Part shown: in pieces, positions 13,551 to 55,516 of the stretch | Position numbering within the stretch: position 1 is the stretch's first letter | Layout of the letters: each line of letters begins with the position of its first letter | Source of the DNA: a virus | Lineage: Duplodnaviria; Heunggongvirae; Uroviricota; Caudoviricetes | Direction: 5' to 3' (one strand) | Length of the DNA: 64,000 bases | Virus record (IMG/VR): IMGVR_UViG_3300013126_000015 | Coordinates: 22,818 to 86,817 of that record | Program-made: the position numbers and the translations under genes | The notes under the pieces: generated by a model | Seen by the model: only the letters and a program-made list of their open reading frames with translations | The model's database searches: none | Told to the model about the DNA's origin: nothing

Positions 13551-14096
13551 TTATGCAGTAGTCAAGTTATGTTTATGAATCCAGAATTGTAGTTTATCTA
13601 ATTCTATGTCATTGATCCAAAATTCTTCATATTCAATATTGCCATTATCGAAATATCTGGTTACTGCAGGGCCATTATCGTTATGTCTGTTGCCATTGAT
13701 CCAAAATCCTTCTTCAATGATATTGCCATTTTCGGAATAATAGATTGATGCAGGTCCATTCTCATTGTGTGTTTTGCCATTAATGGAATATCGTTCATAC
13801 CTGATATTACCATTTGGATGAAATTCAACAATTGCAGGACCATATTCGTTATGGTATCTACCGAGTATGAGGTATTGTTTAGATTCAATATTACCATTCT
13901 CCCAATAAGAAATATATGCAGGCTCGTTGATATTATGTCGTTGGCCATTCTCCCAATATTCTGTTGATGCTATAGTACCATTATCGTAATAAGTAATGAT
14001 TGGATTCGGCATAATATTGTGATTTATTTTATTAAGTGTAGATATATTATACCATGATATTGAGTGGATGTCAAGTGATAGATCATAATTCTGCAA
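13551..14096 (-). CDS. MORN-repeat protein (>=6 repeats YxENGxxxxxxYWxNG)
   Basis: repeat pattern in translation. Confidence 0.55.
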   Translation of the reverse strand: MQNYDLSLDIHSISWYNISTLNKINHNIMPNPIITYYDNGTIASTEYWENGQRHNINEPAYISYWENGNIESKQYLILGRYHNEYGPAIVEFHPNGNIRYERYSINGKTHNENGPASIYYSENGNIIEEGFWINGNRHNDNGPAVTRYFDNGNIEYEEFWINDIELDKLQFWIHKHNLTTA

Positions 14097-18848: not shown

Positions 18849-18877
18849 ATTATACAGAATTTTTTTGATGATGTCAA
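18849..18877 (-). promoter_or_regulatory. consensus sigma70 promoter (TTGACA 18877-18872, 17-nt spacer, TATAAT 18854-18849) driving the 5.7-kb tandem array; ATG only 8 nt after -10
   Basis: read directly. Confidence 0.6.
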
Positions 18878-20168: not shown

Positions 20169-20244
20169 GATTACTCTTCGTTGATGTTGAAAGGAAACGT
20201 GCTAAGTTATGCACCATCTATTATAGCAACTTGCGTTGATTATG

Positions 20245-20880
20245 TCAATAAATTAATGAATCAATTCTTTTGAATTTTATGTTAAATGCATGACAAACCA
20301 ATTCAATTTCTCGAAGACATTGATCACGACCACCACCCATCATATAAAATGGCTGAAGAGAATGAAGCAAGTGAATTGGCACCCAATCTTGAACGAATAT
20401 AGAATCACTATTATTTTCTAATACTTCTTGCGCATCATCTGATAATAATTCTGGATTAAGATCCCTGGAATCATTCTGTTTTTGATTGTACATTGCTCTG
20501 ATGATTTCAATTATGATATGGTTATCAACCCCAGAGTCCATGTAACCTCTCAAAAATCCAAATTCTTTCTGAATGAATTGTGCATTTTGTAATTTTTGTT
20601 CCAATGGTGTTTGTTCTGCTGGTATATAATCATCTTCCTCGTCATCATAAACATATCCATCATATTCTTCATCATGTCCTGCAAGATAATTCAGTACTTG
20701 GTCCGGTGTATCACCCCCACCAAAATCATTATATACTATTACAATTTTTCCATTTGCTTTTTGAATCATTTGTTGAACACCTGGAAGAATATTATTGGCA
20801 TAATTTTGATATTCAGGTTGAACATCAATAATTAATAAATTGGTATTGGATGATTCTGTTAAAAATTCTTTTGCTCTCAT
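20245..20880 (-). CDS. CTS-bearing (MRAKEFLTE) isochorismatase-family hydrolase-like protein (possible nicotinamidase)
   Basis: LLIIDVQPEY and GGGRDQCL resemble isochorismatase/PncA motifs; CTS-like N-terminus. Confidence 0.35.
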   Translation of the reverse strand: MRAKEFLTESSNTNLLIIDVQPEYQNYANNILPGVQQMIQKANGKIVIVYNDFGGGDTPDQVLNYLAGHDEEYDGYVYDDEEDDYIPAEQTPLEQKLQNAQFIQKEFGFLRGYMDSGVDNHIIIEIIRAMYNQKQNDSRDLNPELLSDDAQEVLENNSDSIFVQDWVPIHLLHSLQPFYMMGGGRDQCLREIELVCHAFNIKFKRIDSLIY

Positions 20881-22325: not shown

Positions 22326-23020
22326 TATTTTTCAAACCTTGTGGTAATTGGGTCAATTAATACTGCTTGCCCATTTTTTCTTCTCATGATATTATTAAAG
22401 TGCATATCAGGTTCAAATTGATTATTTCTGAATAATGGCTCTAATATTCTTAATGCTTGGGAAAATTGTTTATTTGTAGTTGAATGTCGAATTTTATTTC
22501 TGGTATTATCATCAAAAAATGCTTTCGAAAATTTAACATGGGCTGGGAATTTTCCACTAGGATCAGTCGAGTTGACAATATCCATTATTCCTAGATTATT
22601 ACACAATAATTCTACACCATTATTTGGATAGTCAAATAATCGTTCCATTACAATTAATAATTGATATTTTGCCTTTGATTGTTCTGGTTCCAAAAAGAAA
22701 TCATGTTGTTGTTCAAACCATTCCATATCATCATATGAAAATTTACTTATATCATATAATTTGAATTTAAGGATTTTTGGAAAGAATTGGTTTTCTGGAT
22801 GATTATGGCATACTCTTAAAAATTGATATGCTGGATCTGATGGACCACTTATTGCAACAAATTTAAGGATGATATTCGGGTTATTTTGAACAGCATATGC
22901 TATAGCTTGAATTCCATTTCCAAGATATGATAATTGTGGTTTATTAATTACACCAGATAATGGTTTTTTTGATGTGGGTATTTCTATTTTCTTTTCTAAG
23001 ATGAGTTCATGAATTTTCAT
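22325..23020 (-). CDS. kinase-like paralog with CTS-like N-terminus (MKIHELILE); degenerate catalytic motif
   Basis: C-terminus ...NGQAVLIDP paralogous to 23024 gene. Confidence 0.4.
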   Translation of the reverse strand: MKIHELILEKKIEIPTSKKPLSGVINKPQLSYLGNGIQAIAYAVQNNPNIILKFVAISGPSDPAYQFLRVCHNHPENQFFPKILKFKLYDISKFSYDDMEWFEQQHDFFLEPEQSKAKYQLLIVMERLFDYPNNGVELLCNNLGIMDIVNSTDPSGKFPAHVKFSKAFFDDNTRNKIRHSTTNKQFSQALRILEPLFRNNQFEPDMHFNNIMRRKNGQAVLIDPITTRFEK

Positions 23021-25121: not shown

Positions 25122-27626
25122 TTATTTACCGTTATCAACGATAATACTTGTTGAATATGTGATACCACCTAAAACATAACCTTTAGTTGAATCAGCATCA
25201 AAACCAATTCCGAAAGATTTAGCGGTACCTTTCCAAGATATTTTAGCACAATCAAGGACGGTTACCTGTTTAGTACCAATTGTAACAACATTACCATTTA
25301 CCGCAGTGATCTTAGCATGAATATCACTTGCTGATTTAGCACCAGCTGGTGTTACACAACTTCCAGCAGGAACTGGGGTTGGTGCTAATGTAGGCACTGG
25401 GGTGCTAGTTGGTGCAGCAGTTGGGACCGGTGTAGCAGTAGGTGCAACTGTTGGTACAGGTGTTGAAGTAGGAATTGCTGTTGGCACTGGAGTGCTAGTA
25501 GGCAATGGGGTACTTGTAGGTACAGCTGTAGGCACCGGTGTAGCTGTAGGAGCAACAGTTGGAACCGGAGTAGCAGTTGCAACGACTGGAGCTGGATCTA
25601 ACGTAATAGTAGTGGCTTCACAGAATACACCAGTTTGATCTTTAACACCAGCATATGTTGCTAATGATCCAGCAGCAAACGTACCTGTCCCGCCAACTAC
25701 GACACCAGTATAATGGACCATTGCGTTTGCCGTAGTAAATGCAGGGTTTGCACCTCTTAATTGAGTGAAACCGGTAATCGGTTCTTGAACACCAGAACAC
25801 GCAGGAGTATTAATAGTCAAATCCAATGTTTCAGATGCAGCAGTTCCAGCAGAATCGGTCAAATCAAATTGAATCGGATAAACACCACTGGTTCCTTGTG
25901 TACCATTAGTATTATCTGGAGCGGCTGGTGTGCCGTACAATTGAATACCATCAAATAACAAACCATTTGGAAGTGGTAAACTAACTGCATTAATAGCAAT
26001 GGTATAAGGAGCGATGCCACCAGTTACACTAATCGGTGTATTAGGCATTGCAACACCTTCAGTCAACACTGGAAGACCTAGAGTAGTAAATGCTAATGCT
26101 GGAACAGGAACAACTACTGGAGCTGGTTGACCATTAGCTAACAATACTTGAACTGTATAAGCTTTAGTAGAAACATTACCATCAGTATCAGTTACATTGA
26201 TAGAAAAGTCATATTTACCAGGAACAGTTGGAGTACCTTCAACAATACCACTATCCAACCCAACAGTCAACCCATCAGGAACTTGACCAGTTGTAGTGAT
26301 TTTATATGGAGAATTACCACCATAAACTGTAGATAATGGAGCCATTTTAGTGTTAACTTTAATATCAGCAATTGCTTCAGCTTGAGTCAATGGCATAACG
26401 TCATTGAAACCAACCATGTTTTCAGAGATAAAGTCACCTACAACAACTACAGCAGAACAATCATAAGAATAACTATCACCTTGCGTATCAGTAATAGTTA
26501 CTGCATTTAATGATGCCGCACCATGTTTACCATCTGGACCAACAGTATCACACATTTGTTCATGTGTTTCACCATCAAATGACCCAGTTGTAGCTGAACC
26601 AGTTGCAGCATTTACGCCAGATGTTAGAGCAGGATCACCATTACCAAATCTGAAGTAGGTATATTTGCGAGTAATAACTTCATCATTAGCTACTTTTTCA
26701 GCAGCACCTACATGTTCTTCTTTAGGTTGTGGTTTACAGACTTTTGGATCTGGATCAACGCAAGCTTTAGCTTTAGGTGGCTTTTGAATCAAATACCATT
26801 CAGATTCAACTTGATTAGGTTCACCATTTTGCCAATCAGGAAGACCATCACCATTTTTATCTTCATTAACTAATGCTTTAACCAATTGGTCAGCACCACC
26901 AGCAACTTTTTTACCATGTACTGACGTTTTTTCAACTCTCAACCAAACAGGTTCACCCCATTGAGCAGGAGCTGGTTCAACTTTTTCTTTAGGAGCTTGC
27001 TGAACAGGGACTACGTTAACTACCGCAGGTTGAAGAGGAATCGGTTGAGCTGGGGCTGGTTGTACTGGAGGTGGAGCTACGAACGTTGGAATTGCCATAG
27101 TAACACCAGGAGCAGATCCACCCAAACTAGCACCACGAACAAGACCAGAGCCTTGTTGATTCAACCAATAAAATCCAACGGATTTAGGAGTACCCATTGC
27201 ACCAGTTGCGAAATGTTCACATCCTGTATCAGCAGCAGATACACAAGAATGTCCACCGGTTGACCATGTTGAAGTGTCTGCAGCAATCGTACCACGAGGA
27301 CGAACACCATTTGCATCAGGTTTCAACTCGTAATGTACGATAGCATGAATTACACCAGCAGCATCAGTATATTCACCCACAGTTGGTGCACCATAACGTG
27401 CTGAATACCATGTATAGCCAATTTGAGCAGAATGCAAACCTTCAAAGTCTTGCTCAAAACCGTATGCCATTTGACCTGTATCATTCGCGACATCAAAGTT
27501 ACCAACAGATACGGCTTGTGCACCAATACCTACACCACATTTACCAAATCCATCACATATAGTGAATGCTTCTGCAGTCGTAATAAAAAATCCCAATAAT
27601 GCCGGGATGTACTTAATATATTTCAT
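25122..27626 (-). CDS. secreted protein with signal peptide, Ig-like (He_PIG-type) domains and ~70-aa Pro/Thr-rich linker; track start 27638, ATG 27626 preferred
   Basis: MKYIKYIPALLGFFITTAEA signal; TPVPT repeats; GGAGA SD before ATG 27626; GC-richer codon usage. Confidence 0.55.
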   Translation of the reverse strand: MKYIKYIPALLGFFITTAEAFTICDGFGKCGVGIGAQAVSVGNFDVANDTGQMAYGFEQDFEGLHSAQIGYTWYSARYGAPTVGEYTDAAGVIHAIVHYELKPDANGVRPRGTIAADTSTWSTGGHSCVSAADTGCEHFATGAMGTPKSVGFYWLNQQGSGLVRGASLGGSAPGVTMAIPTFVAPPPVQPAPAQPIPLQPAVVNVVPVQQAPKEKVEPAPAQWGEPVWLRVEKTSVHGKKVAGGADQLVKALVNEDKNGDGLPDWQNGEPNQVESEWYLIQKPPKAKACVDPDPKVCKPQPKEEHVGAAEKVANDEVITRKYTYFRFGNGDPALTSGVNAATGSATTGSFDGETHEQMCDTVGPDGKHGAASLNAVTITDTQGDSYSYDCSAVVVVGDFISENMVGFNDVMPLTQAEAIADIKVNTKMAPLSTVYGGNSPYKITTTGQVPDGLTVGLDSGIVEGTPTVPGKYDFSINVTDTDGNVSTKAYTVQVLLANGQPAPVVVPVPALAFTTLGLPVLTEGVAMPNTPISVTGGIAPYTIAINAVSLPLPNGLLFDGIQLYGTPAAPDNTNGTQGTSGVYPIQFDLTDSAGTAASETLDLTINTPACSGVQEPITGFTQLRGANPAFTTANAMVHYTGVVVGGTGTFAAGSLATYAGVKDQTGVFCEATTITLDPAPVVATATPVPTVAPTATPVPTAVPTSTPLPTSTPVPTAIPTSTPVPTVAPTATPVPTAAPTSTPVPTLAPTPVPAGSCVTPAGAKSASDIHAKITAVNGNVVTIGTKQVTVLDCAKISWKGTAKSFGIGFDADSTKGYVLGGITYSTSIIVDNGK

Positions 27627-27736
27627 TAATTTCTCCATAAAAATTTAAATTGTCAGCGTCAATATTATCAGACACTAATATATATTTATGGTAATGCTAC
27701 CATAAATTCTGTGTGTTATATCAAAGATTTATAATT

Positions 27737-28687: not shown

Positions 28688-29761
28688 TTAGGTACCAGCT
28701 CTTGTACGATTCAATTTACCAATAGTAAATCCTAAATTAATATAATAATGTAATTTAATATCATCATTGTATGAAATTCTTTTTTCTGAAATACCATCTG
28801 TCAAATATATTTTTTTAATTCTACCTTTCACCCAACCGCTGGATTCATATTTTTCCAGATCATCTATTGAAATTCGTTTTTCTGTGTGTTCATTGTATAC
28901 ATATATTTTACCAGATGTTGGATTACCACGAGTCCATCCATCATTAATATATGCATTTACTTCTTCAAGTGGAACCCGTTTATATGAATTTTCACGTTTT
29001 ATATAAATCAAATCAGCTACAGTACTCGACAATTCATACCCACAATCCAAATACTCAGCAAGTTTAATAGATGGAACTTTTTTTAGTTTACCGTCCTTTT
29101 TAATAACTTTATAATCTTGCTGATTATGGTGGTATTCCCATCCATCAGAGATGTATTGTTCCAGCAGGGATTTTTTTATATATGATAGTTTACCATTTTT
29201 CTTTACAAAAATACAATCTTTAGCTGAAGAATTTCCTAGTATCCATCCACTAGCTAAATAAGAATCTACGTGATCTGGAAGAACCATTTTATTTTGGATG
29301 CCATCTGTAATATATACTCTCTTAATTCCTTTTTGTTGCCATCCTTGCTCAAGATAATAATCTACCATTTTAGGATTCACCATTTTAAATGTATGACCCT
29401 TGGATATTATAATATACCCACTTACGTCTGGAACATGTCCGCAGTTGCAATTCAAACACAAAGGAGCGTCAAAAACCTTTTTTATTTGTAATATATTTTT
29501 TTCGATTTGTATAGCAGATTCTGCATCACTTAAATAAAATAAAACTGATCTCTGATATGGAGTCCCACATTCTTTTAATTTAAGAGCTAGTTTACCAGAA
29601 CAAAAATATCGATCATTATCTAAGCATGAAGTTGAATGTTTTCCGATATAATAGTGACCTGAATCAAATTCAATATAGTACACAGTATGGTACCTTCCAT
29701 CTGTTCCAACTGTTTGGTTCGTTTGAACATTTTTAAATTTGTTAATTATATAATTTTTCAT
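28688..29761 (-). CDS. GIY-YIG homing endonuclease (Seg-like) with six C-terminal ~30-aa repeats (I(Y/F)V..DG..KRI....L..Y..SGW..G)
   Basis: YYIEF...GHYYIGK GIY-YIG motif; tandem repeats visible in translation. Confidence 0.65.
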   Translation of the reverse strand: MKNYIINKFKNVQTNQTVGTDGRYHTVYYIEFDSGHYYIGKHSTSCLDNDRYFCSGKLALKLKECGTPYQRSVLFYLSDAESAIQIEKNILQIKKVFDAPLCLNCNCGHVPDVSGYIIISKGHTFKMVNPKMVDYYLEQGWQQKGIKRVYITDGIQNKMVLPDHVDSYLASGWILGNSSAKDCIFVKKNGKLSYIKKSLLEQYISDGWEYHHNQQDYKVIKKDGKLKKVPSIKLAEYLDCGYELSSTVADLIYIKRENSYKRVPLEEVNAYINDGWTRGNPTSGKIYVYNEHTEKRISIDDLEKYESSGWVKGRIKKIYLTDGISEKRISYNDDIKLHYYINLGFTIGKLNRTRAGT

Positions 29762-29821: not shown

Positions 29822-31282
29822 CTATGCTCTAGCTCGTGATTTTACTTCGTCCCACGACTGCCGGTATTCTCTAAACCCGTCTTTGTACCACAATCTCCAT
29901 CCAGCCGCTGGAGTCAAAAAATTAAAGATATTTCCTTCTGATATAGCGTCATATACTTCAATGTCACCATTTTCATTCTCTCTGCAGCGAACTAATCCTT
30001 TTAATGATTTTTTTCCAGAATCAGTAATAGGATCTTTAATAGTAGCAACCCATTTTCCATATCTAAAATTTGCAGTTGATTTGAAACTGAAACCAAAATC
30101 ATCACGCGAACCAAAATGGGTGATACCTGCTCCAGAACCTAAGCAAAAGTTGTCCATAGCAAAGCCAGCATCAACCCACCCTTGACAAATTTCTCGAACT
30201 GTATTTACTTTTACACCATCTCCCTGTATTACACCAGTTGATGGGTGTAATACCTTGTACCCTTTATTATTAATAGTTACCCCAAAGGTAGCTTCCCAAT
30301 CTTTGCCTACTAATCCTGGTTCGATTGTCATATCTCCGGTATCTGGTCTAGCAATCATGCGCCCACCAGATGCCAAAATTCTATCTTTTAATCTAGTACC
30401 AAGATATTCTCTCACAAATCTTCTTGAATCATATGTATCAATCACTGCTGACATAAATGGTAAACCAATGCCGCGTTTATGTCTTTCCACTGCCTCAAAT
30501 AATCTATCTACTACCATAACAGCTGCACCGAAATCATCTTTATTTTCCGCATCTGAATGAGCACATGATACACTATGTTCACTCGCTTCAATAGATGAAG
30601 TTGATGGTTTATATGTTCCATACAAGCGTTTAATATACCCATTTGCTCTAATACAGTCTGACCCATCAAATAGTGCGGCATGTGCAATACCAGAGATTAC
30701 TGCTGCTTCATCTGGACTATCAGCACTTCTGTCGCCAAACTCATGCATCATGTAGTTAACATTGGTGGTGTCAGTTCCGGTAAGTTCACAGAATTCTATA
30801 AGAGTCAACCTCATTGCTCTGCAAACAGATGCAACAGTAGACATTTTCCAAATCAATGCTTGTGAAAATGTTTCAAAATAGGTTACTAACCACGCAAAAT
30901 TAGACACAGTATTAATAATACCAACTATTGGCGTTTGTGGTGCAACTATTCGGCCTTCTTCTACTCCATAAATTGCTAATGGTATTTTTCCATCAAGTTC
31001 TCGTACAATACGTTCCCATCCTTCTCTATTGAAGTGGTATCCTTGTTCAGTAACTTCAACTTCTGCTTCATCAATCATTTCCATTGTGATTCTAGTAGCT
31101 GCAAAAATTGAAGATAATAGGGTAATACCCATTGAAACAATATGGGTAGAATATGAACTTGACTTTCGTGGAACCATATTTGCATAACCATATTCGTCGC
31201 CAGTAGGTGCTTCTAGCCAGTGATTAATTTTATACCCATCTGCACACAAAATTATATTAAATGGTTTTAAATGTTCTAACAT
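29822..31282 (-). CDS. nadV: nicotinamide phosphoribosyltransferase
   Basis: full-length NAMPT-like translation; GAGGA SD. Confidence 0.75.
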   Translation of the reverse strand: MLEHLKPFNIILCADGYKINHWLEAPTGDEYGYANMVPRKSSSYSTHIVSMGITLLSSIFAATRITMEMIDEAEVEVTEQGYHFNREGWERIVRELDGKIPLAIYGVEEGRIVAPQTPIVGIINTVSNFAWLVTYFETFSQALIWKMSTVASVCRAMRLTLIEFCELTGTDTTNVNYMMHEFGDRSADSPDEAAVISGIAHAALFDGSDCIRANGYIKRLYGTYKPSTSSIEASEHSVSCAHSDAENKDDFGAAVMVVDRLFEAVERHKRGIGLPFMSAVIDTYDSRRFVREYLGTRLKDRILASGGRMIARPDTGDMTIEPGLVGKDWEATFGVTINNKGYKVLHPSTGVIQGDGVKVNTVREICQGWVDAGFAMDNFCLGSGAGITHFGSRDDFGFSFKSTANFRYGKWVATIKDPITDSGKKSLKGLVRCRENENGDIEVYDAISEGNIFNFLTPAAGWRLWYKDGFREYRQSWDEVKSRARA

Positions 31283-31376
31283 AATGAAATCCTCATTGTT
31301 TTTATAAAAATTGGTGGAAGGTCTATCCCTCCACCATAAAATTATATTATATCATAATAATATAATTAGTCAACTA

Positions 31377-32618
31377 TTATTTACCTTTTAGTGCACTTGC
31401 CAATTGACCGAACCAATCTGAAATCTTATCAGATGAAATCATCCATTGTGGGAGTGCTGGCAGTTTACCATCCCATTTTTTATACGGTTCCGCTTGTGCT
31501 ACCATGATAGAGGTTTCAGCTTCATAGCGATCAGCTTTTAATGTTTCTAATCGGTTGACAGAAGAATCTCTTGCATATTGGCTTACTACTAAATCGGTAA
31601 TACTCTTTTGTAAAGATGGGTCCAGTCTCATATCAGATGAAATCCCAATATACTCAATGGTGATTCCCATTTTTTTGTATTCGGTGATCATTTGTTTTTC
31701 AACTGACTGCAAAATTTCACTTTTCTTTGCCAGCATTTCCTTGAATGGGAACTTAGCAAATTCAGAAAAATAGGCAGACTTGATTCGAGCATGTACCCTA
31801 GTGTTCATTACATTATTGAGTGATTTGCCTTGCAAAACAGATGGGAAATTTCGTTCATCGTCCGTCCCACCGGTTGCTGCTTCAACACCAAACCAATAAA
31901 GGTATTTTGCTGCATCTTCTTCTAGAACATTTGCACCAATTGATACATCAAAGCATGCTGAAATAGAATCTTCTGATTCAACACACACTTCTTGGTTAGT
32001 AGGTGATTCTGGTGTATTGGTTTTAGTCCAGTTAACAACATATGGAGTCCGATCTAGTAATACTAAAATTGCACCCGGAACATAATAATCAATTGCACCT
32101 GAGTTTTTCAAAACAACGTGTGGAATTTGGATACGTTTTGCACCAACTTTTTTGTCATTCAAAAATGCTTCTGATTCAAATTGTTTCTGGCTATCTTTTG
32201 TTTCACCGGTTGCTGGGATCAAGAATGCAGAATGGTTAGGGAGAACGTTTACATTTTCAGCCCAATCTTGTCTTGAATAATATGCGTTAGCATCTTTGAC
32301 TACAAAATTGGTCACCAAGACCATCATTCCTAGTACAACCAATGTTTTGGATGATTTATCAAATAATGATTTAATATTGTTCCACCATAGCCCAATTATG
32401 GCAAGCAATAGCACCCCAGATGATAGACCACCGGACATGCTTTTAAAAAATTCCATTCCGGTCATGCTTTTTGCATAACTAGCGATGCTATCATCAAATT
32501 GACTTACCGCAATAGCACCAGCTTCTGCAGTACCAACCGCAGCAGTATAGATACCCAAATACTTCCATCCAGTAATGGCAAGTAGTGTCAAACAAAGTTT
32601 AAAAATTATAGTCTTCAT
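31377..32618 (-). CDS. SPFH/band-7 (prohibitin-like) membrane protein
   Basis: N-terminal TM segments; C-terminal A/E-rich SPFH-like region. Confidence 0.4.
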   Translation of the reverse strand: MKTIIFKLCLTLLAITGWKYLGIYTAAVGTAEAGAIAVSQFDDSIASYAKSMTGMEFFKSMSGGLSSGVLLLAIIGLWWNNIKSLFDKSSKTLVVLGMMVLVTNFVVKDANAYYSRQDWAENVNVLPNHSAFLIPATGETKDSQKQFESEAFLNDKKVGAKRIQIPHVVLKNSGAIDYYVPGAILVLLDRTPYVVNWTKTNTPESPTNQEVCVESEDSISACFDVSIGANVLEEDAAKYLYWFGVEAATGGTDDERNFPSVLQGKSLNNVMNTRVHARIKSAYFSEFAKFPFKEMLAKKSEILQSVEKQMITEYKKMGITIEYIGISSDMRLDPSLQKSITDLVVSQYARDSSVNRLETLKADRYEAETSIMVAQAEPYKKWDGKLPALPQWMISSDKISDWFGQLASALKGK

Positions 32619-32684
32619 TGTTTACCTTATGTTATATTAAAAAATTGTGTTACACCGTAAGTATAGCATGTTTATAAAAAAGTG

Positions 32685-33050
32685 TCAATAGTCTCTATCA
32701 AAATAGTGTTTAAAACATGCTTCATCTTTATAATGTTCCTTTACATAATCGATGTACTCCGGTGGTGGTTTTATGATACCTATTTTACCATTTGCAGGAT
32801 CATATACAACCCATCGTTCTCCAGTTTTTAATGGGTACGGTTGTTTATTCAAGAATAATAGGAATGCCTTGTGTTTTGCGAATTCTTCTAATTCTTGATA
32901 TATAGTTGGATGATTTGCATAGTTTTTTGGATTTTTTTGAATCCAATTTATACAGTTTACTAAATGTCCAATAGCCATATCTTTTATCAATGTTGCTCTA
33001 CCGTCTGCTGAACCCCATTGTATATTACCTATTTCTTCAATACTTTTCAT
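32685..33050 (-). CDS. hypothetical protein (121 aa); start trimmed to ATG 33050 (GGTGA SD)
   Basis: ORF between nadV and natV. Confidence 0.4.
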   Translation of the reverse strand: MKSIEEIGNIQWGSADGRATLIKDMAIGHLVNCINWIQKNPKNYANHPTIYQELEEFAKHKAFLLFLNKQPYPLKTGERWVVYDPANGKIGIIKPPPEYIDYVKEHYKDEACFKHYFDRDY

Positions 33051-33054
33051 TTTA

Positions 33055-34089
33055 TCACCTGCATATTGAAACACCCCAAGTAATTATCGAAAGATGGTCC
33101 TCGAACAAATATTCCTCCATATCTAATACATCATCAATTGGAAACCACTTGGCAAATCTAGCATCATCAGATCCTTTAACTTTAGACAACGGTCCAGATG
33201 GTAATTCTATTGCATAAGCATGTGTGATAGTTCGTCCTCGCAATGATCGTGACGGTTTATCGAACACCTGCGTTCCTTTTATAGAACCTCTTAATACTGG
33301 CTCTGGTATTTTGATTTTAGTTTCTTCCCTTAACTCTCTTATAACACCATCAATCAAATATTCGGACTGGTTTACAAATCCCCCAGGAAGTGCCCATAAT
33401 CCTTTTCCAGGACTCGCTTTACGTTGCACCAATAGGACATGACCTGATTGAATCACAACAGCGTCAGTGGTCACAAAAGTGGGTGGGTATGGAGCATTGT
33501 CCCAGGATTTTTTATAACCTTGAATATGATTAAACTCATCAACCAGATTTTTATAATCATCACTTTTTGTCCACTCTCTTAAATCGTTCTGCAGTTGGGA
33601 ATCAATTAACGGTCTATCTTTCCAATTAAATATTGCTCCAGTAAATAATTGTTCCCGGACAGTGGTTGCATCAATATCAATGATATGATCGGTATTAATA
33701 AAATCCCATTGTGGGAAATAATCAATATAATAGGAAGTAGAATCTTTTTTGCAGCCCACGATACCAATTTTTGGATCGGTAATGCCACATGTTTCTTTTT
33801 TGACTATTCGTTGAACTTGTTGAATCCACTCTTGATCAACTCGGAAATCACGGATACCATGACAACTAATTCTGGATGAATCTTGTTTTGGTAGTTGATT
33901 CAGTAACATTGCAGCACGTTCATACCACTTCCACGGGTTTTTAATCGTTCGTGGTTGAAAGCTGGAGCCGAATAATACTATTACTTTATTTGAACGTTCT
34001 AATGCTGTAGTTACATTATGAACATGTGCGTGAGTTGGTGGTTGCATTCTGCCAATGTATACAATGGCATCATATTTTTGTTTTGTCAT
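33055..34089 (-). CDS. natV: bifunctional NMN adenylyltransferase / Nudix ADP-ribose pyrophosphatase
   Basis: N-terminal HxxH nucleotidyltransferase motif (PPTHAHVH) plus Nudix box (GGFVNQSEYLIDGVIRELREETK). Confidence 0.7.
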   Translation of the reverse strand: MTKQKYDAIVYIGRMQPPTHAHVHNVTTALERSNKVIVLFGSSFQPRTIKNPWKWYERAAMLLNQLPKQDSSRISCHGIRDFRVDQEWIQQVQRIVKKETCGITDPKIGIVGCKKDSTSYYIDYFPQWDFINTDHIIDIDATTVREQLFTGAIFNWKDRPLIDSQLQNDLREWTKSDDYKNLVDEFNHIQGYKKSWDNAPYPPTFVTTDAVVIQSGHVLLVQRKASPGKGLWALPGGFVNQSEYLIDGVIRELREETKIKIPEPVLRGSIKGTQVFDKPSRSLRGRTITHAYAIELPSGPLSKVKGSDDARFAKWFPIDDVLDMEEYLFEDHLSIITWGVSICR

Positions 34090-34139
34090 AAGGAATCCCC
34101 TTAAAGTTAAAAGTCGCTGTCTATCAGCTGTAAGTATTT

Positions 34140-34168
34140 ATTATATTATCAAATTAACCTAATGTCAA
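34140..34168 (-). promoter_or_regulatory. consensus sigma70 promoter for natV (TTGACA 34168-34163, 17 nt, TATAAT 34145-34140)
   Basis: read directly. Confidence 0.6.
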
Positions 34169-34410
34169 GAATATTTTAATACAAACGCATTAAAATATTT
34201 TTCAGAATCAAATGTAATTCCAGTTTCGTTGTTGTATGTCCATAATACTGCATGGCAATTGTATAGGTAAAACATTGAGTTTATAAAATTTATACGAATA
34301 GATTCTGGCATATCATAATAAAATTCGTATTCATCCCTAAATTGGTTAAAAAAGTTATTATACCCAATGTCATAATGTGATTTTAAAATATGTGTATATT
34401 TCATGCCCAT
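34165..34410 (-). CDS. tandem paralog family II small protein (...YFNAFVLKYS)
   Basis: C-terminal motif. Confidence 0.5.
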   Translation of the reverse strand: MGMKYTHILKSHYDIGYNNFFNQFRDEYEFYYDMPESIRINFINSMFYLYNCHAVLWTYNNETGITFDSEKYFNAFVLKYS

Positions 34411-34727
34411 TTCAACAAGAATAATGTTCTATCTTTTTCATATTTAAAATAAAAATAATTATTTATTACAGTATATCTATCACTACAGTGCTTCCGTAAA
34501 TAATCATGAAAATTAAATATTGCATGAACATCAAACTCATGGGCATCCACTATAAACTGATCATGTGCTTCATGACATGTGAATTTAGGTTTTTTAAATG
34601 CAGCATCTCCTGCTAGGACCCAATTAGTGCCATCAAACTTCATCATAGTATTCGTTTGGGTGTTATAATAAACTGTACCAACCGCTGGAGCAGCCGTTGT
34701 GTAAGTAAATGCTATATTATGAACCAT
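34401..34727 (-). CDS. family II small protein (...DRTLFLLKWA)
   Basis: C-terminal motif. Confidence 0.5.
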   Translation of the reverse strand: MVHNIAFTYTTAAPAVGTVYYNTQTNTMMKFDGTNWVLAGDAAFKKPKFTCHEAHDQFIVDAHEFDVHAIFNFHDYLRKHCSDRYTVINNYFYFKYEKDRTLFLLKWA

Positions 34728-35750: not shown

Positions 35751-35990
35751 TTATGTATGTAGTATAAAGTACATCATATCACGTTCTGACTTGAATGTCA
35801 ACTCATAAACCGGGGAGTATTTAGCTTTTTCACATGAGCAATTGAAATGTGATATGAATTCTTCATGTATACCACCAGTTGGCTTATCATATTTTGTTCT
35901 TATAAATTTAGCGGAATTTATTAATGCTGTTCCATTTATTTTAACATAAACTGATAATCCATCATACTTCAAATTTTCTACCATGTTCAT
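35751..35990 (-). CDS. family II-like small protein (...RDMMYFILHT)
   Basis: C-terminal motif. Confidence 0.45.
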   Translation of the reverse strand: MNMVENLKYDGLSVYVKINGTALINSAKFIRTKYDKPTGGIHEEFISHFNCSCEKAKYSPVYELTFKSERDMMYFILHT

Positions 35991-36444
35991 CGATATATTT
36001 TTTTGCAGATATTAATGAGTCTGGAACATACCCAGGATTATATGATATTCTAGTATCATTTTGTTTAAAAAATCTATAAACCAATAACTCATCAACTGCT
36101 GAAAACCAGTGAATGACATTTGGTTCGAGTTTTATTAGTTCCAATTCTTTACAATCGACAATATATAAGAAATCATCACTGTATATGTAAAAAGTGGCAG
36201 TACCTTTCATAATAAATCGCAATTCTTCCCCATCATGGTAATGGATATCTGAATCTACTACTCCAGAGCGATTAAAAAATGTGTCGAATTTTGTATAACC
36301 ATACTTGATAACATCCAAATCTGATTTATCAACTTTCTCATATGGAGTTATGGAAAAAACACCATATAAATCGAATTGTTCACTAGTGCGTAAAACTTGA
36401 TCTATTTTTAATTCAATTGGGTTTATTTTATAAATGATAGCCAT
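35962..36444 (-). CDS. hypothetical protein (160 aa)
   Basis: ORF. Confidence 0.45.
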   Translation of the reverse strand: MAIIYKINPIELKIDQVLRTSEQFDLYGVFSITPYEKVDKSDLDVIKYGYTKFDTFFNRSGVVDSDIHYHDGEELRFIMKGTATFYIYSDDFLYIVDCKELELIKLEPNVIHWFSAVDELLVYRFFKQNDTRISYNPGYVPDSLISAKKYIDEHGRKFEV

Positions 36445-36472: not shown

Positions 36473-36718
36473 TTATAACCATTTTAATATGAATAATGTT
36501 CTATCAGCTTCATTACGAAAAGAAAATATATCATTGTTTGGCCAACTTCTTGAATACCGTCGCCATCTTTCATCATTATTACCAAAACTAAATTCACACC
36601 ATATTGTCATTTCTTTTAATGCATATTCATTATAGCCGAGATCATGTTTTTCAATAATCTCGGTCATTGATTGCCAATCCAATTCAACAGTGTATTCAGT
36701 ATATACTTTCATGACCAT
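36473..36718 (-). CDS. family II small protein (...ADRTLFILKWL)
   Basis: C-terminal motif. Confidence 0.5.
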   Translation of the reverse strand: MVMKVYTEYTVELDWQSMTEIIEKHDLGYNEYALKEMTIWCEFSFGNNDERWRRYSRSWPNNDIFSFRNEADRTLFILKWL

Positions 36719-36951
36719 TTTATAAAAAATAAGGTTTTGTATTTTTCATTATCAAATATTAATTTAAAATAAGTAATTTCATCAGTAATATATATTGCTT
36801 TATATGGTCTTAACTCAATATCAAGATAATATCTATATGAATTATATTCTTTAAGTTTATCTGGATATGTTTCATACAAATGTGAAATAAAATTATCCCA
36901 TACCGGTATTCTGTTACCATTTCGTCCAACATCAACTGTTACATAAGTCAT
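36709..36951 (-). CDS. family II small protein (...KYKTLFFIKWS)
   Basis: C-terminal motif. Confidence 0.5.
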   Translation of the reverse strand: MTYVTVDVGRNGNRIPVWDNFISHLYETYPDKLKEYNSYRYYLDIELRPYKAIYITDEITYFKLIFDNEKYKTLFFIKWS

Positions 36952-37157
36952 AAGAATTTTAATAAAAATATGGTGTAATGTTTTTCAGAATCAAACGTGA
37001 CAGTGTTATCTCTTCGATTGTATGTAGCATTACACAGTTTTATGAATTCTTCGAACACATTAATACTTTTTCCACTGTTTAAATCAACCAAATTTATAAT
37101 CTTAATTCTAGCATTTTCTGGAATGTCAGCCCAATAAATGGTGTAACTCATCCCCAT
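36948..37157 (-). CDS. family II small protein (...KHYTIFLLKFL)
   Basis: C-terminal motif. Confidence 0.5.
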   Translation of the reverse strand: MGMSYTIYWADIPENARIKIINLVDLNSGKSINVFEEFIKLCNATYNRRDNTVTFDSEKHYTIFLLKFL

Positions 37158-37387
37158 TTCAATACAAATAAATTATAACATGCTTCTGACTGAAATGCAA
37201 TAGCATCCCATTGTCCTTGATCATCTAAAATCATCCACATATTATGCTCTTTCATTTTTCCAAGTAGAAGGTTATCGAAATTAACACTAGCAGAAGGACT
37301 AGCTAAATCGTGGGCATTAAATATAAATCTTTTCCACCATGATGGTATTTCCTCAAAAGACTTATGAGCGAGTTCAACAATATACAT
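37148..37387 (-). CDS. family II small protein (...ACYNLFVLKWG)
   Basis: C-terminal motif. Confidence 0.5.
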   Translation of the reverse strand: MYIVELAHKSFEEIPSWWKRFIFNAHDLASPSASVNFDNLLLGKMKEHNMWMILDDQGQWDAIAFQSEACYNLFVLKWG

Positions 37388-40930: not shown

Positions 40931-41140
40931 TTATCCCCATCTTAATAAAAATAAATTCGCATGAGCATCGTCTTTAAAATAAAATTCATCGAGTATATTA
41001 TGATTGGAGTCATATGACCAAATTGAGTAATCATCACCAAACGTCCGTTTACACCATTGCCATATCTTTTTTCTATCATTGGTAGGATACACTGAAATAT
41101 CAATCCTAATTACGTATGGTAATCTATAATCTACGTTCAT
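40931..41140 (-). CDS. family II small protein (...HANLFLLRWG)
   Basis: C-terminal motif. Confidence 0.5.
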   Translation of the reverse strand: MNVDYRLPYVIRIDISVYPTNDRKKIWQWCKRTFGDDYSIWSYDSNHNILDEFYFKDDAHANLFLLRWG

Positions 41141-41146
41141 CGCGTG

Positions 41147-41425
41147 TTACCAACGAATGTTCTTCCAGTTCAATTTATTACTTGGAGTATTAAATGCCAT
41201 TATTGCTTTAGACACCCATTCTACTCTAAATATTGCGGCAAATATTACCAATGGTAAAAATAATAACATTGACCACCAAACTCTATTTTCTCCATACCAT
41301 GGTTTTTCAAACACAAAATATGGGTGTATCGCCAAAATACAATCTAATACTACCAAAGCAGTTATAATATATTCATTCATACTATTTTCCTTTCTAATCA
41401 ACGTTTCCACTTTAATAGAAACCAA
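41147..41425 (-). CDS. small membrane protein (92 aa, 2 TM)
   Basis: hydrophobic segments. Confidence 0.45.
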   Translation of the reverse strand: MVSIKVETLIRKENSMNEYIITALVVLDCILAIHPYFVFEKPWYGENRVWWSMLLFLPLVIFAAIFRVEWVSKAIMAFNTPSNKLNWKNIRW

Positions 41426-41592
41426 TTATAATCTTTTTCATCGGTGAACTCGAACCATGAATGTCCAAATAATGAACTAAATCCCCACTTTTCATTTATA
41501 GGACCATAGGTATCTGTACACCACTTTATTATATCATGTTGAACATGATAATAATCTCTATTTAACATGATTTCTAACTTCATGTCGCCCAT
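41398..41592 (-). CDS. family II small protein (...DYNWFLLKWKR)
   Basis: C-terminal motif. Confidence 0.5.
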   Translation of the reverse strand: MGDMKLEIMLNRDYYHVQHDIIKWCTDTYGPINEKWGFSSLFGHSWFEFTDEKDYNWFLLKWKR

Positions 41593-41837
41593 TTTAATAA
41601 AAATAAATTCAACATTTTTTCATTATCACTCCAAACATATATTCCTGGGCACATGACATGTGGAATAGGCACATATGTTATTGGGTGTATTACTGGGTGT
41701 ATTGGGTGGTACCAAATGGTGGAGTCATTGGTTTGGCCACTACACCATTCTTCCATATCCTGTATATCCTGTGGTGTCGCAGTTGGTAATGAATAATGCA
41801 TTCGGTCCATCCCATGAATCATCCATTTGAATAGCAT
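41580..41837 (-). CDS. family II small protein (...MLNLFLLKWAT)
   Basis: C-terminal motif. Confidence 0.5.
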   Translation of the reverse strand: MLFKWMIHGMDRMHYSLPTATPQDIQDMEEWCSGQTNDSTIWYHPIHPVIHPITYVPIPHVMCPGIYVWSDNEKMLNLFLLKWAT

Positions 41838-53236: not shown

Positions 53237-53480
53237 ATTTTAGATGCCACCAATTCGCATATTTTTCATTTTCAAAGAATGGGTGTAATTCCATTGTCCA
53301 TGTTTGAGTATTAACTTTCCAATCTAATCTATAATTACCAGGATATATTTTTTGAAAATCTTCAGTGATTTTCATTATTTTAAGTTCTGTACTTTCTGCA
53401 GAACTGAATATTCTGTTGATTTCATAACAATGACGTAATGTATTAAGATATTGTTTCCATGGACTCATTATATCCCCCAT
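53229..53480 (-). CDS. family II-like small protein (...ANWWHLKYD)
   Basis: C-terminal motif. Confidence 0.4.
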   Translation of the reverse strand: MGDIMSPWKQYLNTLRHCYEINRIFSSAESTELKIMKITEDFQKIYPGNYRLDWKVNTQTWTMELHPFFENEKYANWWHLKYD

Positions 53481-53651
53481 TTTAATATGAACATTGTATA
53501 ATATCGTTCGTCATAGAATTGTATTTTTGCTAATTGTCGTAATCGCCACGTTGAGTCAGTTGATGGACCAAAAGTTTTATTACAATAAGCCAGCATTTCA
53601 AAACATTTGTGTCGATCTTTTCTATATTCAAGTTCTATTATCATTATTTAA

Positions 53652-54554: not shown

Positions 54555-54791
54555 TTAAAATCTATTTGGATGGTGTTTTAACAGTTTGGTTTCAATCTTA
54601 TGCCATTTTCCAACAACATATGAATGTGACCCAAGGTAGTGCAATTTTGCAAAAATTCTATCGATTATGTTTGGGATATTACGTCGAACATTAAAGTTAT
54701 AATCATAGTTAGCAGTCCCGCGTAATCTGTCGCGGATTTTATATTTTAACGGATATACTACCGGTGCAAATTGTTTCATGGTCAACACCAT
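54555..54791 (-). CDS. hypothetical protein (78 aa)
   Basis: ORF. Confidence 0.4.
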   Translation of the reverse strand: MVLTMKQFAPVVYPLKYKIRDRLRGTANYDYNFNVRRNIPNIIDRIFAKLHYLGSHSYVVGKWHKIETKLLKHHPNRF

Positions 54792-54970
54792 CTTAAAATA
54801 AAGTAAGTGTAATCTCGCTGGTTATCAAATTGTATCACATCTTTTAGAATTTTGCAATGGAATTCTTTTTCGAATTCTTTAGTAGATGGTTCGGTGCCAT
54901 GTGTATTTTCATACCATTCATAGGCACTGAACACTTCATTACTTCTGAATAGTAACTCATGTTTTTTCAT
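54782..54970 (-). CDS. family II small protein (...DYTYFILRWC)
   Basis: C-terminal motif. Confidence 0.45.
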   Translation of the reverse strand: MKKHELLFRSNEVFSAYEWYENTHGTEPSTKEFEKEFHCKILKDVIQFDNQRDYTYFILRWC

Positions 54971-55266
54971 TATTCACCAAATTTTAACACAAATAATGTT
55001 CTATCCTGTTCTTTTTTAAAGTAAAAACGAAAATATCCATCCTCATCAATGCCATGATAGAATCTATCTTTAAATGATTCTTCGCACCATAAGATTGATT
55101 CTACCAATTGATCATGTGAGTCATGCATACTTGTAAAATTTGATCTTACGTAATAAATGAATGCTGTTTCGTGAGTGTTATCTAGTTGGCCAACTGATTT
55201 CACTATTACCGGAGTCCAGTCATATCTATTTCTCATTGAAAAAATCGATGCTGATGGGATTGACAT
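54970..55266 (-). CDS. family II small protein (...DRTLFVLKFGE); track ORF trimmed to internal ATG 55266
   Basis: AT-rich low-complexity N-terminal extension in track ORF is implausible. Confidence 0.4.
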   Translation of the reverse strand: MSIPSASIFSMRNRYDWTPVIVKSVGQLDNTHETAFIYYVRSNFTSMHDSHDQLVESILWCEESFKDRFYHGIDEDGYFRFYFKKEQDRTLFVLKFGE

Positions 55267-55330
55267 AGGTTGTACACCCACGATGTCATTGGCAATTGAT
55301 TGTGGTATTATCTTTCTTAATAATGGTATA

Positions 55331-55516
55331 TTAATCTCTGTCACGGTGCTCATGATGGTGATGTCGGTTATGATGCTGATTATGATGGTATTGGTATTGT
55401 GGATAATACCTTGGGTAATATACAGGTTGAACTGGGTAATAATAGCTGTCGTATCCACGGTAATTGTGGGCACATCCAACTAAAAATAATAACGATAATA
55501 CTAATAATTTATTCAT
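55331..55516 (-). CDS. His/Tyr/Pro-rich lipoprotein (61 aa; lipobox LVGC)
   Basis: MNKLLVLSLLFLVGCA then YYYPVQPVYYPRYYP...HHNRHHHHEH. Confidence 0.5.
   Translation of the reverse strand: MNKLLVLSLLFLVGCAHNYRGYDSYYYPVQPVYYPRYYPQYQYHHNQHHNRHHHHEHRDRD

Follow-up and report, generated by a model that had tools for sequence, protein, structure and literature searches.

A 64,000-nucleotide stretch of a tailed-phage genome (Caudoviricetes; IMG/VR record IMGVR_UViG_3300013126_000015, positions 22,818 to 86,817), referred to here as the window, encodes an NAD+ salvage pair, natV and nadV, which, judging by protein families and domain order, is a new member of the type found in phage KVP40 and called NARP2. 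The two genes are separated by a gene for a 413-residue SPFH/Band-7 membrane protein and by p121, a gene for a 121-residue orphan. The reading favoured here, with a probability of roughly 0.55, is that the pair has been split by p121 and an autonomous, early SPFH accessory gene that occupies a plastic slot and stands outside the enzymatic pathway. SPFH genes are also found beside nadV in other phages, and this recurrence is statistically suggestive and seems to be unreported. According to the listing of open reading frames (ORFs) of the window, all genes of the locus are on the minus strand. In the direction of transcription, the genes and predicted signals are as follows.

34168-34140, minus strand: putative natV promoter TTGACA-17 nt-TATAAT, read directly; 12 of 12 consensus positions match; about 50 nt upstream of the natV start codon.
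33055-34089, minus strand: natV, nicotinamide mononucleotide (NMN) adenylyltransferase (N-terminal) and Nudix ADP-ribose pyrophosphatase (C-terminal), 344 residues (Pfam, PHROG, NCBIfam).
32685-33050, minus strand: p121, soluble orphan protein of 121 residues; the ORF starts 4 nt past the natV stop codon.
32688-32660, minus strand: putative promoter of the SPFH gene, TTGACA-17-TATACT with an extended -10 TG; 11 of 12 positions match; the -35 box overlaps the p121 stop codon.
31377-32618, minus strand: SPFH/Band-7 membrane protein, 413 residues (Pfam, phrog_200, AlphaFold/Foldseek).
31373-31346, minus strand: promoter-like site of nadV, TTGACT-16-TATAAT with TG; 11 of 12 positions match; starts 4 nt past the SPFH stop codon.
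31336-31312, minus strand: 10-bp GC-rich hairpin followed by ATTTTTAT, between the SPFH gene and nadV (terminator scan and sequence).
29822-31282, minus strand: nadV, nicotinamide phosphoribosyltransferase, 486 residues (Pfam, PHROG, NCBIfam).
28688-29761, minus strand: ORF of 357 residues, a neighbour outside the NAD pair; phrog_314 at E = 5.5e-6, no Pfam match.

NadV matches PF18127 (NAMPT_N, 48 bits) and PF04095 (NAPRTase, 79 bits), both above cut-off, and phrog_448 at E = 6e-110; its score against the NCBIfam equivalog NF006629 is 345.7 bits, under the cut-off of 405. It is 38-45% identical to NadV of jumbo phages and 54-58% identical to proteins of uncultured jumbo-phage contigs. NatV contains PF01467 (CTP_transf_like) and PF00293 (NUDIX) domains, matches phrog_395 at E = 6e-71 and scores 358.6 bits against NF003788 (bifunctional nicotinamide-nucleotide adenylyltransferase/Nudix), for which the cut-off is 354. 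Its translation shows the (T/H)xxH motif as THAH and the Nudix box as RELREE, and it is 39-46% identical to annotated NadM/Nudix proteins of cultured jumbo phages. The initial annotation of the locus had proposed a KVP40-type pair, composed of a 486-residue NadV and a NatV combining NMN adenylyltransferase (NMNAT) and Nudix domains, with an SPFH protein and a 121-residue ORF between the two genes. Coordinates, Pfam, PHROG and NF003788 agree with it on the enzymes, both protein families and the order of the NatV domains are those of NARP2, and the two intervening ORFs lie where it had placed them.

In KVP40, the two NARP2 genes, for NadV (Nampt) and NatV (Nmnat-Nudix), suffice for activity and counter-defence (Osterman et al. 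preprint, 10.1101/2024.02.11.579819). The window shares with NARP2 the two protein families, the NatV domain order, and the presence of both genes in one locus and one direction. However, the KVP40 pair is treated as one operon (10.1101/2024.02.11.579819), whereas the window genes each have a predicted promoter and are 1.77 kb apart on the same strand, with two unrelated genes inside. NadV would convert nicotinamide and phosphoribosyl pyrophosphate (PRPP) to NMN, and NatV, which also carries the Nudix ADP-ribose pyrophosphatase domain, would adenylate NMN to NAD+. By analogy, the window pair may make NAD+ from nicotinamide, PRPP and ATP and overcome NAD+-depleting defence, functions that are known for the KVP40 proteins only. 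The NAD+ pair itself is ordinary; the novelty lies in the SPFH subfamily and in the recurrence of SPFH genes beside nadV. The 6-kb region has no megablast match among 50,697 phage records and hence no close cultured relative. The window is an early/replication region encoding a DnaB-like helicase, a primase, an RNA ligase and a deoxyribonucleotidase. It comes from a contig of 75.6-102 kb, and the source phage is large, uncultured and probably virulent.

The 413-residue protein is a genuine SPFH protein. A hidden Markov model search with Band_7 (PF01145), named in advance as the test on which this assignment would stand or fall, matched residues 211-359 to profile positions 50-174 with 30.0 bits, above the gathering score of 23.6 (E = 6.4e-7). 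The protein also matches phrog_200 at E = 3e-10, and most of its homologues have a precomputed PF01145 match. The AlphaFold model, built on 32 family members, has a predicted local distance difference test (pLDDT) score of 78 overall and of 85-96 over the SPFH core (residues 180-340), and contains a 47-residue helix (residues 334-380). The 50 best Foldseek matches listed from the PDB are all prohibitin, stomatin, HflK/C, erlin, flotillin, QmcA or major vault protein, with a probability of 1.0 and E values down to 1e-9. The NCBIfam models of HflK and HflC do not match the protein, and it is the only SPFH ORF in the window.

Three predicted hydrophobic helices (residues ~3-23, 65-83 and 92-107), kept across the alignment of 32 family sequences, form the N-terminal part of the protein. 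They are followed by a conserved QxxNSD loop, the SPFH1/2 domains, the long C-terminal helix and a KWDGKLP motif. The positive-inside charge pattern over the 32 members fits an N-in, three-span topology. In two proteins of the same family, those of locus L047 and phage G (gp65), lipoprotein signal peptides replace the three-helix module, so that their SPFH domain must be exported. The charge bias and these homologues predict a periplasmic location for the SPFH domain of the window protein, whereas NadV and NatV are expected in the cytoplasm. The protein would be anchored in the inner membrane by its three N-terminal helices, with the SPFH domains and the long helix on the periplasmic side. By analogy with HflK/C, stomatin and prohibitin, it most likely forms a ring or cage that fences a membrane patch.

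In Bacillus phage G (gp64/gp65; L131, 7636-8873) and in L055-L057, L072, L106, L110 and L113, the transmembrane (TM)/QxxNSD module has a small ORF of its own, which immediately precedes the SPFH ORF. Because the TM module is split off in some lineages and swapped for a lipoprotein signal in others, the membrane and SPFH modules are separable. The 97-residue ORFs of four lineages, which ranked as the top family among SPFH neighbours, were rejected as such, being the SPFH protein's own N-terminal TM module encoded separately.

Two groups of known SPFH proteins are closest in design. Like HflK/HflC, which surround FtsH, the window protein combines an N-terminal anchor with SPFH1/2 domains and a long helix; its SPFH part is predicted to be periplasmic, as that of HflK/C is known to be, and the Foldseek probability is 1.0. 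However, it is encoded by a single gene and not by a paralogous pair, has three N-terminal helices instead of one, and is 8-13% identical. With the phage SPFH 'lipoproteins' of phrog_200 (44RR ORF098c, Aeh1 ORF064c, RB43 ORF139c, and those of Kayvirus, RaK2-like phages and Vequintavirinae) it shares the SPFH domain and a KWDGKLP-type C-terminal motif, but the window subfamily has a three-TM module and the QxxNSD loop instead of a lipoprotein signal peptide. The C-terminal W-D/N-G-K-L-P motif (residues ~382-392) is common to the window subfamily and these phage 'lipoproteins', which are otherwise barely alignable, and it may mark a site at which phage SPFH proteins, but not others, bind a partner. 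The canonical SPFH type is present in 804 of the 50,697 phage records, and tblastn with the window protein over the same records found phage G gp65 and one faecal phage only. A profile of the window subfamily fails to detect Aeh1p069 and misses canonical Band_7 proteins. Scanning IMG/VR with the single protein gave no match, and the homologous loci were obtained with an alignment as the query. The locus defines a separate phage SPFH subfamily with a three-TM module, an SPFH domain predicted to face the periplasm and a putative early promoter, and this narrows the hypotheses on the role of phage SPFH proteins.

The p121 ORF encodes 121 residues from an ATG, or 129 from an upstream GTG that overlaps natV. 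Pfam, PHROG, NCBIfam and PADLOC contain no match to it, and a search of 5.8 billion proteins gave only four homologues. These are 70-75% identical, which argues that p121 is conserved and coding. The AlphaFold model (pLDDT 77) is mostly helical, has no hydrophobic segment and resembles no fold in the PDB. In all close relatives (L010-L015) p121 is directly upstream of the SPFH gene. This placement is reminiscent of SPFH-NfeD operons (QmcA-YbbJ; Pyrococcus stomatin PH1511/PH1510), in which a small conserved gene directly precedes the SPFH gene. However, p121 has neither an NfeD match nor a TM helix nor an OB-fold, its model is mostly helical and lacks a PDB match, and an NfeD-type partner was therefore rejected. 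A small upstream ORF as a family-wide partner of SPFH was rejected as well, because the upstream ORFs of L002, L003, L006, L008 and L009 are not homologous to p121. The p121 family is confined to a narrow clade.

The window contains 20 sites with at most one mismatch to the TTGACA-17-TATAAT pattern, compared to 2.7 +/- 1.6 in shuffled sequences (about 7-fold), and 17 of the 20 are on the coding (minus) strand. Five are perfect; examples among the 20 are 2743-2771, 14046-14074, 18849-18877, 20220-20248 and 34140-34168. This excess of predicted promoters implies that the phage relies heavily on the host RNA polymerase to transcribe many short early units. The promoter that the initial annotation had assigned to natV at 34140-34168 is exact, and such sites are above chance. 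The site does precede natV as its own predicted promoter, but this does not make natV special, since the SPFH gene and nadV have predicted promoters too.

The -35 box (TTGAC) and TGCTATACT of the SPFH promoter are kept in L010 and L012, the SPFH proteins of which are 82% and 76% identical to that of the window, while the spacer and flanks vary. The promoter-like site of nadV is nearly identical in L010. The hairpin at 31336-31312 is fully conserved in L010, and L012 has a different, non-homologous hairpin and T-run at the same place after the SPFH gene, so that this gene is followed by a hairpin and T-run in all three loci. Only ~10 nt separate the hairpin from the -10 box predicted for nadV, so that it would stand at the very 5' end of the nadV transcript; it is likely to act there as a stem-loop and/or to terminate SPFH transcription. 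A search of Rfam for riboswitches and other known RNAs, taken to E = 1, had no match in the nadV leader or anywhere from 28 to 35.5 kb.

A single operon from natV to nadV that includes the SPFH gene was rejected, given the predicted internal promoters and the hairpin with its T-run, which are conserved in relatives. As predicted promoters precede the SPFH gene and nadV, and the hairpin lies between these two, the four genes are probably not one operon. The SPFH gene appears to be its own transcription unit, with a conserved predicted promoter of the sigma-70 type and a predicted terminator hairpin, and would be expressed early.

An early, autonomous SPFH gene could serve a membrane-level function outside NAD metabolism, such as superinfection exclusion, lysis timing, control of a host protease (e.g. 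FtsH), or a role as a virion component. Many phage SPFH proteins are lipoproteins, and known superinfection exclusion proteins include lipoproteins as well. In Kayvirus the SPFH gene adjoins lysis genes (holin, lysin and transglycosylase). The HflK/C cage around FtsH in the periplasm of E. coli is among the fold matches of the window protein (PDB 7vhq, 7wi3, 9cz2). SPFH-domain proteins have been found by mass spectrometry in virions of Eneladusvirus jumbo phages (PMC7760394). On the other hand, the consensus sigma-70 promoter in an early/replication region speaks against a late structural or lysis role, and the ORF, Pfam and PHROG results show no holin, endolysin or FtsH-related gene nearby. 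A function of this kind is unlikely, roughly at the level of one chance in a few.

The synteny of the locus was compared across phages using K64-1, XaC1, Serratia phage BF, Vibrio phage 2.275.O and 80 IMG/VR loci. No gene separates natV and nadV in K64-1, one unrelated gene does so in XaC1 and in Serratia phage BF, and nine do in Vibrio phage 2.275.O. In fourteen IMG/VR loci, nadV is 54-58% identical to that of the window, and natV is detectable in 13 of them; in the remaining locus, L148, it was not found within 10 kb of nadV. The gap between the two genes in these 13 loci ranges from 67 bp to 6.9 kb and is occupied by NADAR, nucleoside 2-deoxyribosyltransferase, DnaJ-like or small TM proteins, or by ~20 small ORFs. 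The region between natV and nadV is a plastic slot with many different occupants, among them the SPFH block. Homologues of the SPFH protein (P0007, P0010, P0011, P0016 and P0024, with 64%, 60%, 57%, 51% and 33% identity) reside in unrelated contexts on T4-like or jumbo contigs, with neither nadV nor natV found within 8 kb. Similarly, nadV is nearby in none of 49 bacterial-genome loci of the window SPFH family.

The gene order changes even among the closest relatives. L010 and L011, with SPFH proteins 82% identical, have the order of the window, natV-p121-SPFH-nadV, whereas L012-L015 (76%) have p121-SPFH-71aa-NMNAT-nadV. The NMNAT of L012 (2987-4111, 374 residues) has a C-terminal cytidylyltransferase-like domain and an unassigned N-terminus of 215 residues, has no detectable homology to natV, and is on the other side of the SPFH gene; by sequence it is a non-orthologous replacement of the adenylyltransferase step. 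These gene orders show that p121 and the SPFH gene travel together, whereas the adenylyltransferase differs in kind and in side. Protein identity between the window and L010 is 83% for natV, 74% for p121 and 82% for SPFH, compared to 54% for nadV, and DNA identity drops from ~80% to ~60% just inside the 5' end of nadV (~31200). Because of this step the nadV allele seems to have been swapped. The 357-residue ORF sits between nadV and a small Fer2_BFD ORF and is absent at that place in L012. It has a weakly homing-endonuclease-like N-terminus and about seven repeated C-terminal modules of the 'GW..G' type. The locus is a mosaic.

The SPFH gene might be there by pure hitch-hiking, in which its cassette landed by illegitimate or homing-associated recombination, its adjacency to the NAD genes has no meaning, and recurrence elsewhere reflects accessory genes piling up at permissive sites and related contigs counted repeatedly. 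The recombination step at the 5' end of nadV and the homing-endonuclease-like ORF next door would fit this account, as would the moron-like build of the SPFH gene. Morons are defined in temperate phages. The SPFH gene resembles them in having its own predicted promoter and terminator and a location that varies among relatives, but the window is the early region of a probably virulent large phage. Moreover, no family flanks the window SPFH family within 3 kb in more than two of 36 lineages (the split-off N-terminal ORF excluded), and the SPFH-positive loci of NARP1 type described below all fall into one or two single-linkage nadV clusters. The canonical SPFH proteins beside nadV are 31-63% identical to each other and may stem from few juxtapositions; even a single ancestral one could explain them. 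Against hitch-hiking, SPFH genes are tight against NAD genes and not spread through the 10-kb flanks, unrelated SPFH types occur near orthologous nadV (the window versus L142), and none is found around PhoH. Overall, we regard hitch-hiking as a possibility that is less likely to be right than wrong, at about three chances in ten.

In the favoured reading, a two-gene block, p121 and the SPFH gene, would have split the NAD pair in the window lineage, and the SPFH gene would owe its position to gene flux in the very plastic natV-nadV slot of a mosaic early region. We lean towards the view that the SPFH gene is neither an enzymatic nor an obligatory part of NAD+ salvage. That a membrane scaffold lies inside a metabolic module had been considered unexpected. 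The point is weakened by the predicted transcription unit of the gene, the variable slot, the homologues located elsewhere and the predicted periplasmic domain; what remains of it is that SPFH genes recur by nadV in several lineages. The closeness of the two genes elsewhere would reflect co-residence in an accessory island for host takeover or counter-defence, not membership of one machine.

This recurrence weighs against an accessory gene without a tie to NAD+. Around the window SPFH family, covered by 130 SPFH-centred loci (36 lineages at 60% identity), the family that recurs most often within 10 kb is nadV, present in 5 of the 36 lineages: the window clade, the L045/L046/L047/L050 group, which has a pair of Prs-like and NadV-like genes, and L072. 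An SPFH ORF is present in 13 of 80 nadV-centred loci and in none of 79 PhoH-centred loci of equal total length (Fisher p = 1.4e-4, at the locus level and uncorrected for phylogeny; the PhoH control is unmatched for host or habitat). Nine of the 13 SPFH ORFs are at most 0.2 kb from a NAD gene. L142 and L157, whose nadV is 58% identical to that of the window, have a different SPFH lipoprotein 1.3 kb downstream of nadV. Furthermore, the promoters and terminator on which the autonomy of the SPFH gene rests are consensus predictions, and its topology comes from charge bias and homologues. The recurrence could be a real functional coupling. A second control set, centred on dCMP deaminase, comprised 13 loci that were all RaK2-like, and was discarded. 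SPFH genes stand beside nadV in nine arrangements.

Window, L010: natV-p121-SPFH-nadV.
L012: p121-SPFH-71aa-NMNAT-nadV.
L047/L050: Prs-NadV-82aa-SPFH.
L072: SPFH beside nadV.
cr85_1 (crAss-like phage)/L174: nadV-prs-65aa-SPFH.
L168, L210: SPFH-prs-nadV.
L176/L166: nadV-624aa SPFH.
L198: SPFH beside nadV.
L142/L157: SPFH lipoprotein 1.3 kb downstream of nadV.

Several of these loci resemble NARP1, which consists of Adps (Prs-like) and Namat (NadV-like): L047/L050, L161-L183, L168, L176, L210 and cr85_1 pair a Prs-like with a NadV-like gene and have an SPFH gene adjacent. The window differs in having no Prs-like gene near nadV, and the Prs-like genes of the related loci are candidate members of the Adps clade. 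Six representatives of the 13 SPFH-positive nadV loci (L142, L161, L174, L176, L198 and L210) score 54-95 bits against Pfam Band_7. The 13 include canonical and long subtypes whose identity to the window protein is below 35% or undetectable by BLASTP.

An alternative is that the SPFH protein is a real, optional third partner of NAD+ reconstitution, which takes part from the membrane in the conflict that also engages NadV and NatV. It might, for example, enclose or stabilise a target in the inner membrane, keeping the cell intact and energised during NAD+ rebuilding, or it might oppose effectors with which the same abortive-infection systems (TIR/SIR2 type) disrupt membranes. Divergent SPFH subtypes in nine arrangements and the difference from the PhoH control are what such a partner would lead one to expect. 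On nadV contigs, SPFH genes have a density of 0.064 per kb up to 0.7 kb from NAD genes versus 0.0023 per kb beyond 2.1 kb, and, reciprocally, 5 of 80 loci centred on canonical SPFH have a nadV at most 10 kb away, compared to ~1.1 expected from the collection-wide density. In the cultured phage PHB09, gp3 is nadV and gp7 is an SPFH protein (PMC8622976). A precedent for a membrane protein in a phage NAD+ module is NARP3 (NadR and PnuC), which includes an inner-membrane protein (PMC13464706); PnuC, however, is a transporter with a defined substrate, whereas SPFH is a scaffold without a known link to NAD precursors. The other recurrent neighbours of nadV are related to NAD or ADP-ribose (NADAR, Macro, Sir2, Nudix), which suggests a functionally themed neighbourhood.

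The same alternative is opposed by the rarity of the link, which ~84% of the loci centred on nadV and ~94% of those centred on canonical SPFH lack, and SPFH-nadV adjacency is absent in Kayvirus, Bacillus phage B4, phage G, Aeh1, Pseudomonas phage RP6 and RaK2-like phages. At the lineage level the statistics are weak: SPFH-positive nadV loci fall in 4 of 22 nadV lineages, and a hypothetical 4/22 versus 0/22 gives p = 0.11. The predicted periplasmic location speaks against direct contact with the enzymes, and the KVP40 pair works without SPFH (10.1101/2024.02.11.579819). PADLOC models match neither the SPFH protein, p121, the 357-residue ORF nor the L047 SPFH protein, and no other family ties the SPFH protein to defence. 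A third-partner role is consequently improbable here. Equally improbable is its general form, in which SPFH/band-7 cage proteins would be a recurrent accessory partner of NARP1 and NARP2, recruited repeatedly in several subtypes and gene orders and acting at the periplasmic face of the inner membrane in the same abortive-infection conflicts.

The NARP literature examined does not mention SPFH, and a full-text search pairing SPFH with phage NAD genes returned only the PHB09 gene table. If the recurrence survives phylogenetic correction, it is a lead to a membrane-level function that accompanies NAD+ rebuilding, and gives an extra candidate for counter-defence islands. If it does not, the finding reduces to a mosaic phage locus, which would still show, on the predicted transcription units, that NARP2 genes need not adjoin or be co-transcribed.

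NADAR genes lie between natV and nadV in L139-L141, L147 and L149, which are among the closest nadV relatives. A NADAR gene is also found two genes from the SPFH gene in L003 (6676-7191) and 0.5 kb from an SPFH 'lipoprotein' in L220 (Klebsiella phage BIS47). Genes for nucleoside 2-deoxyribosyltransferase, like those for Macro, Sir2 and Nudix proteins, recur near nadV.

Elsewhere in the window, at least 12 paralogous small proteins (~60-110 residues) that end in a hydrophobic-LKW/LKY motif are scattered over 18127-55479 on the minus strand. Examples are 34401-34727, 36473-36718, 36948-37157, 37148-37387, 40934-41146, 41401-41619, 53471-53647, 54785-54973 and 54973-55479, and just upstream of natV several copies follow one another in tandem. 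The gene at 25122-27638 encodes an 838-residue protein that has a signal-like sequence at its N-terminus and contains He_PIG (Ig-like) repeats as well as long repeats rich in Pro, Thr and Ala. The gene's GC content is 0.39 versus ~0.31 in the surroundings, and it is possibly an acquired gene or one with a surface-exposed product, odd in an early region. A 160-residue ARD/cupin (acireductone dioxygenase-like) protein is encoded at 35962-36444 among small early ORFs, and a homologous gene is located near the SPFH gene in L003.

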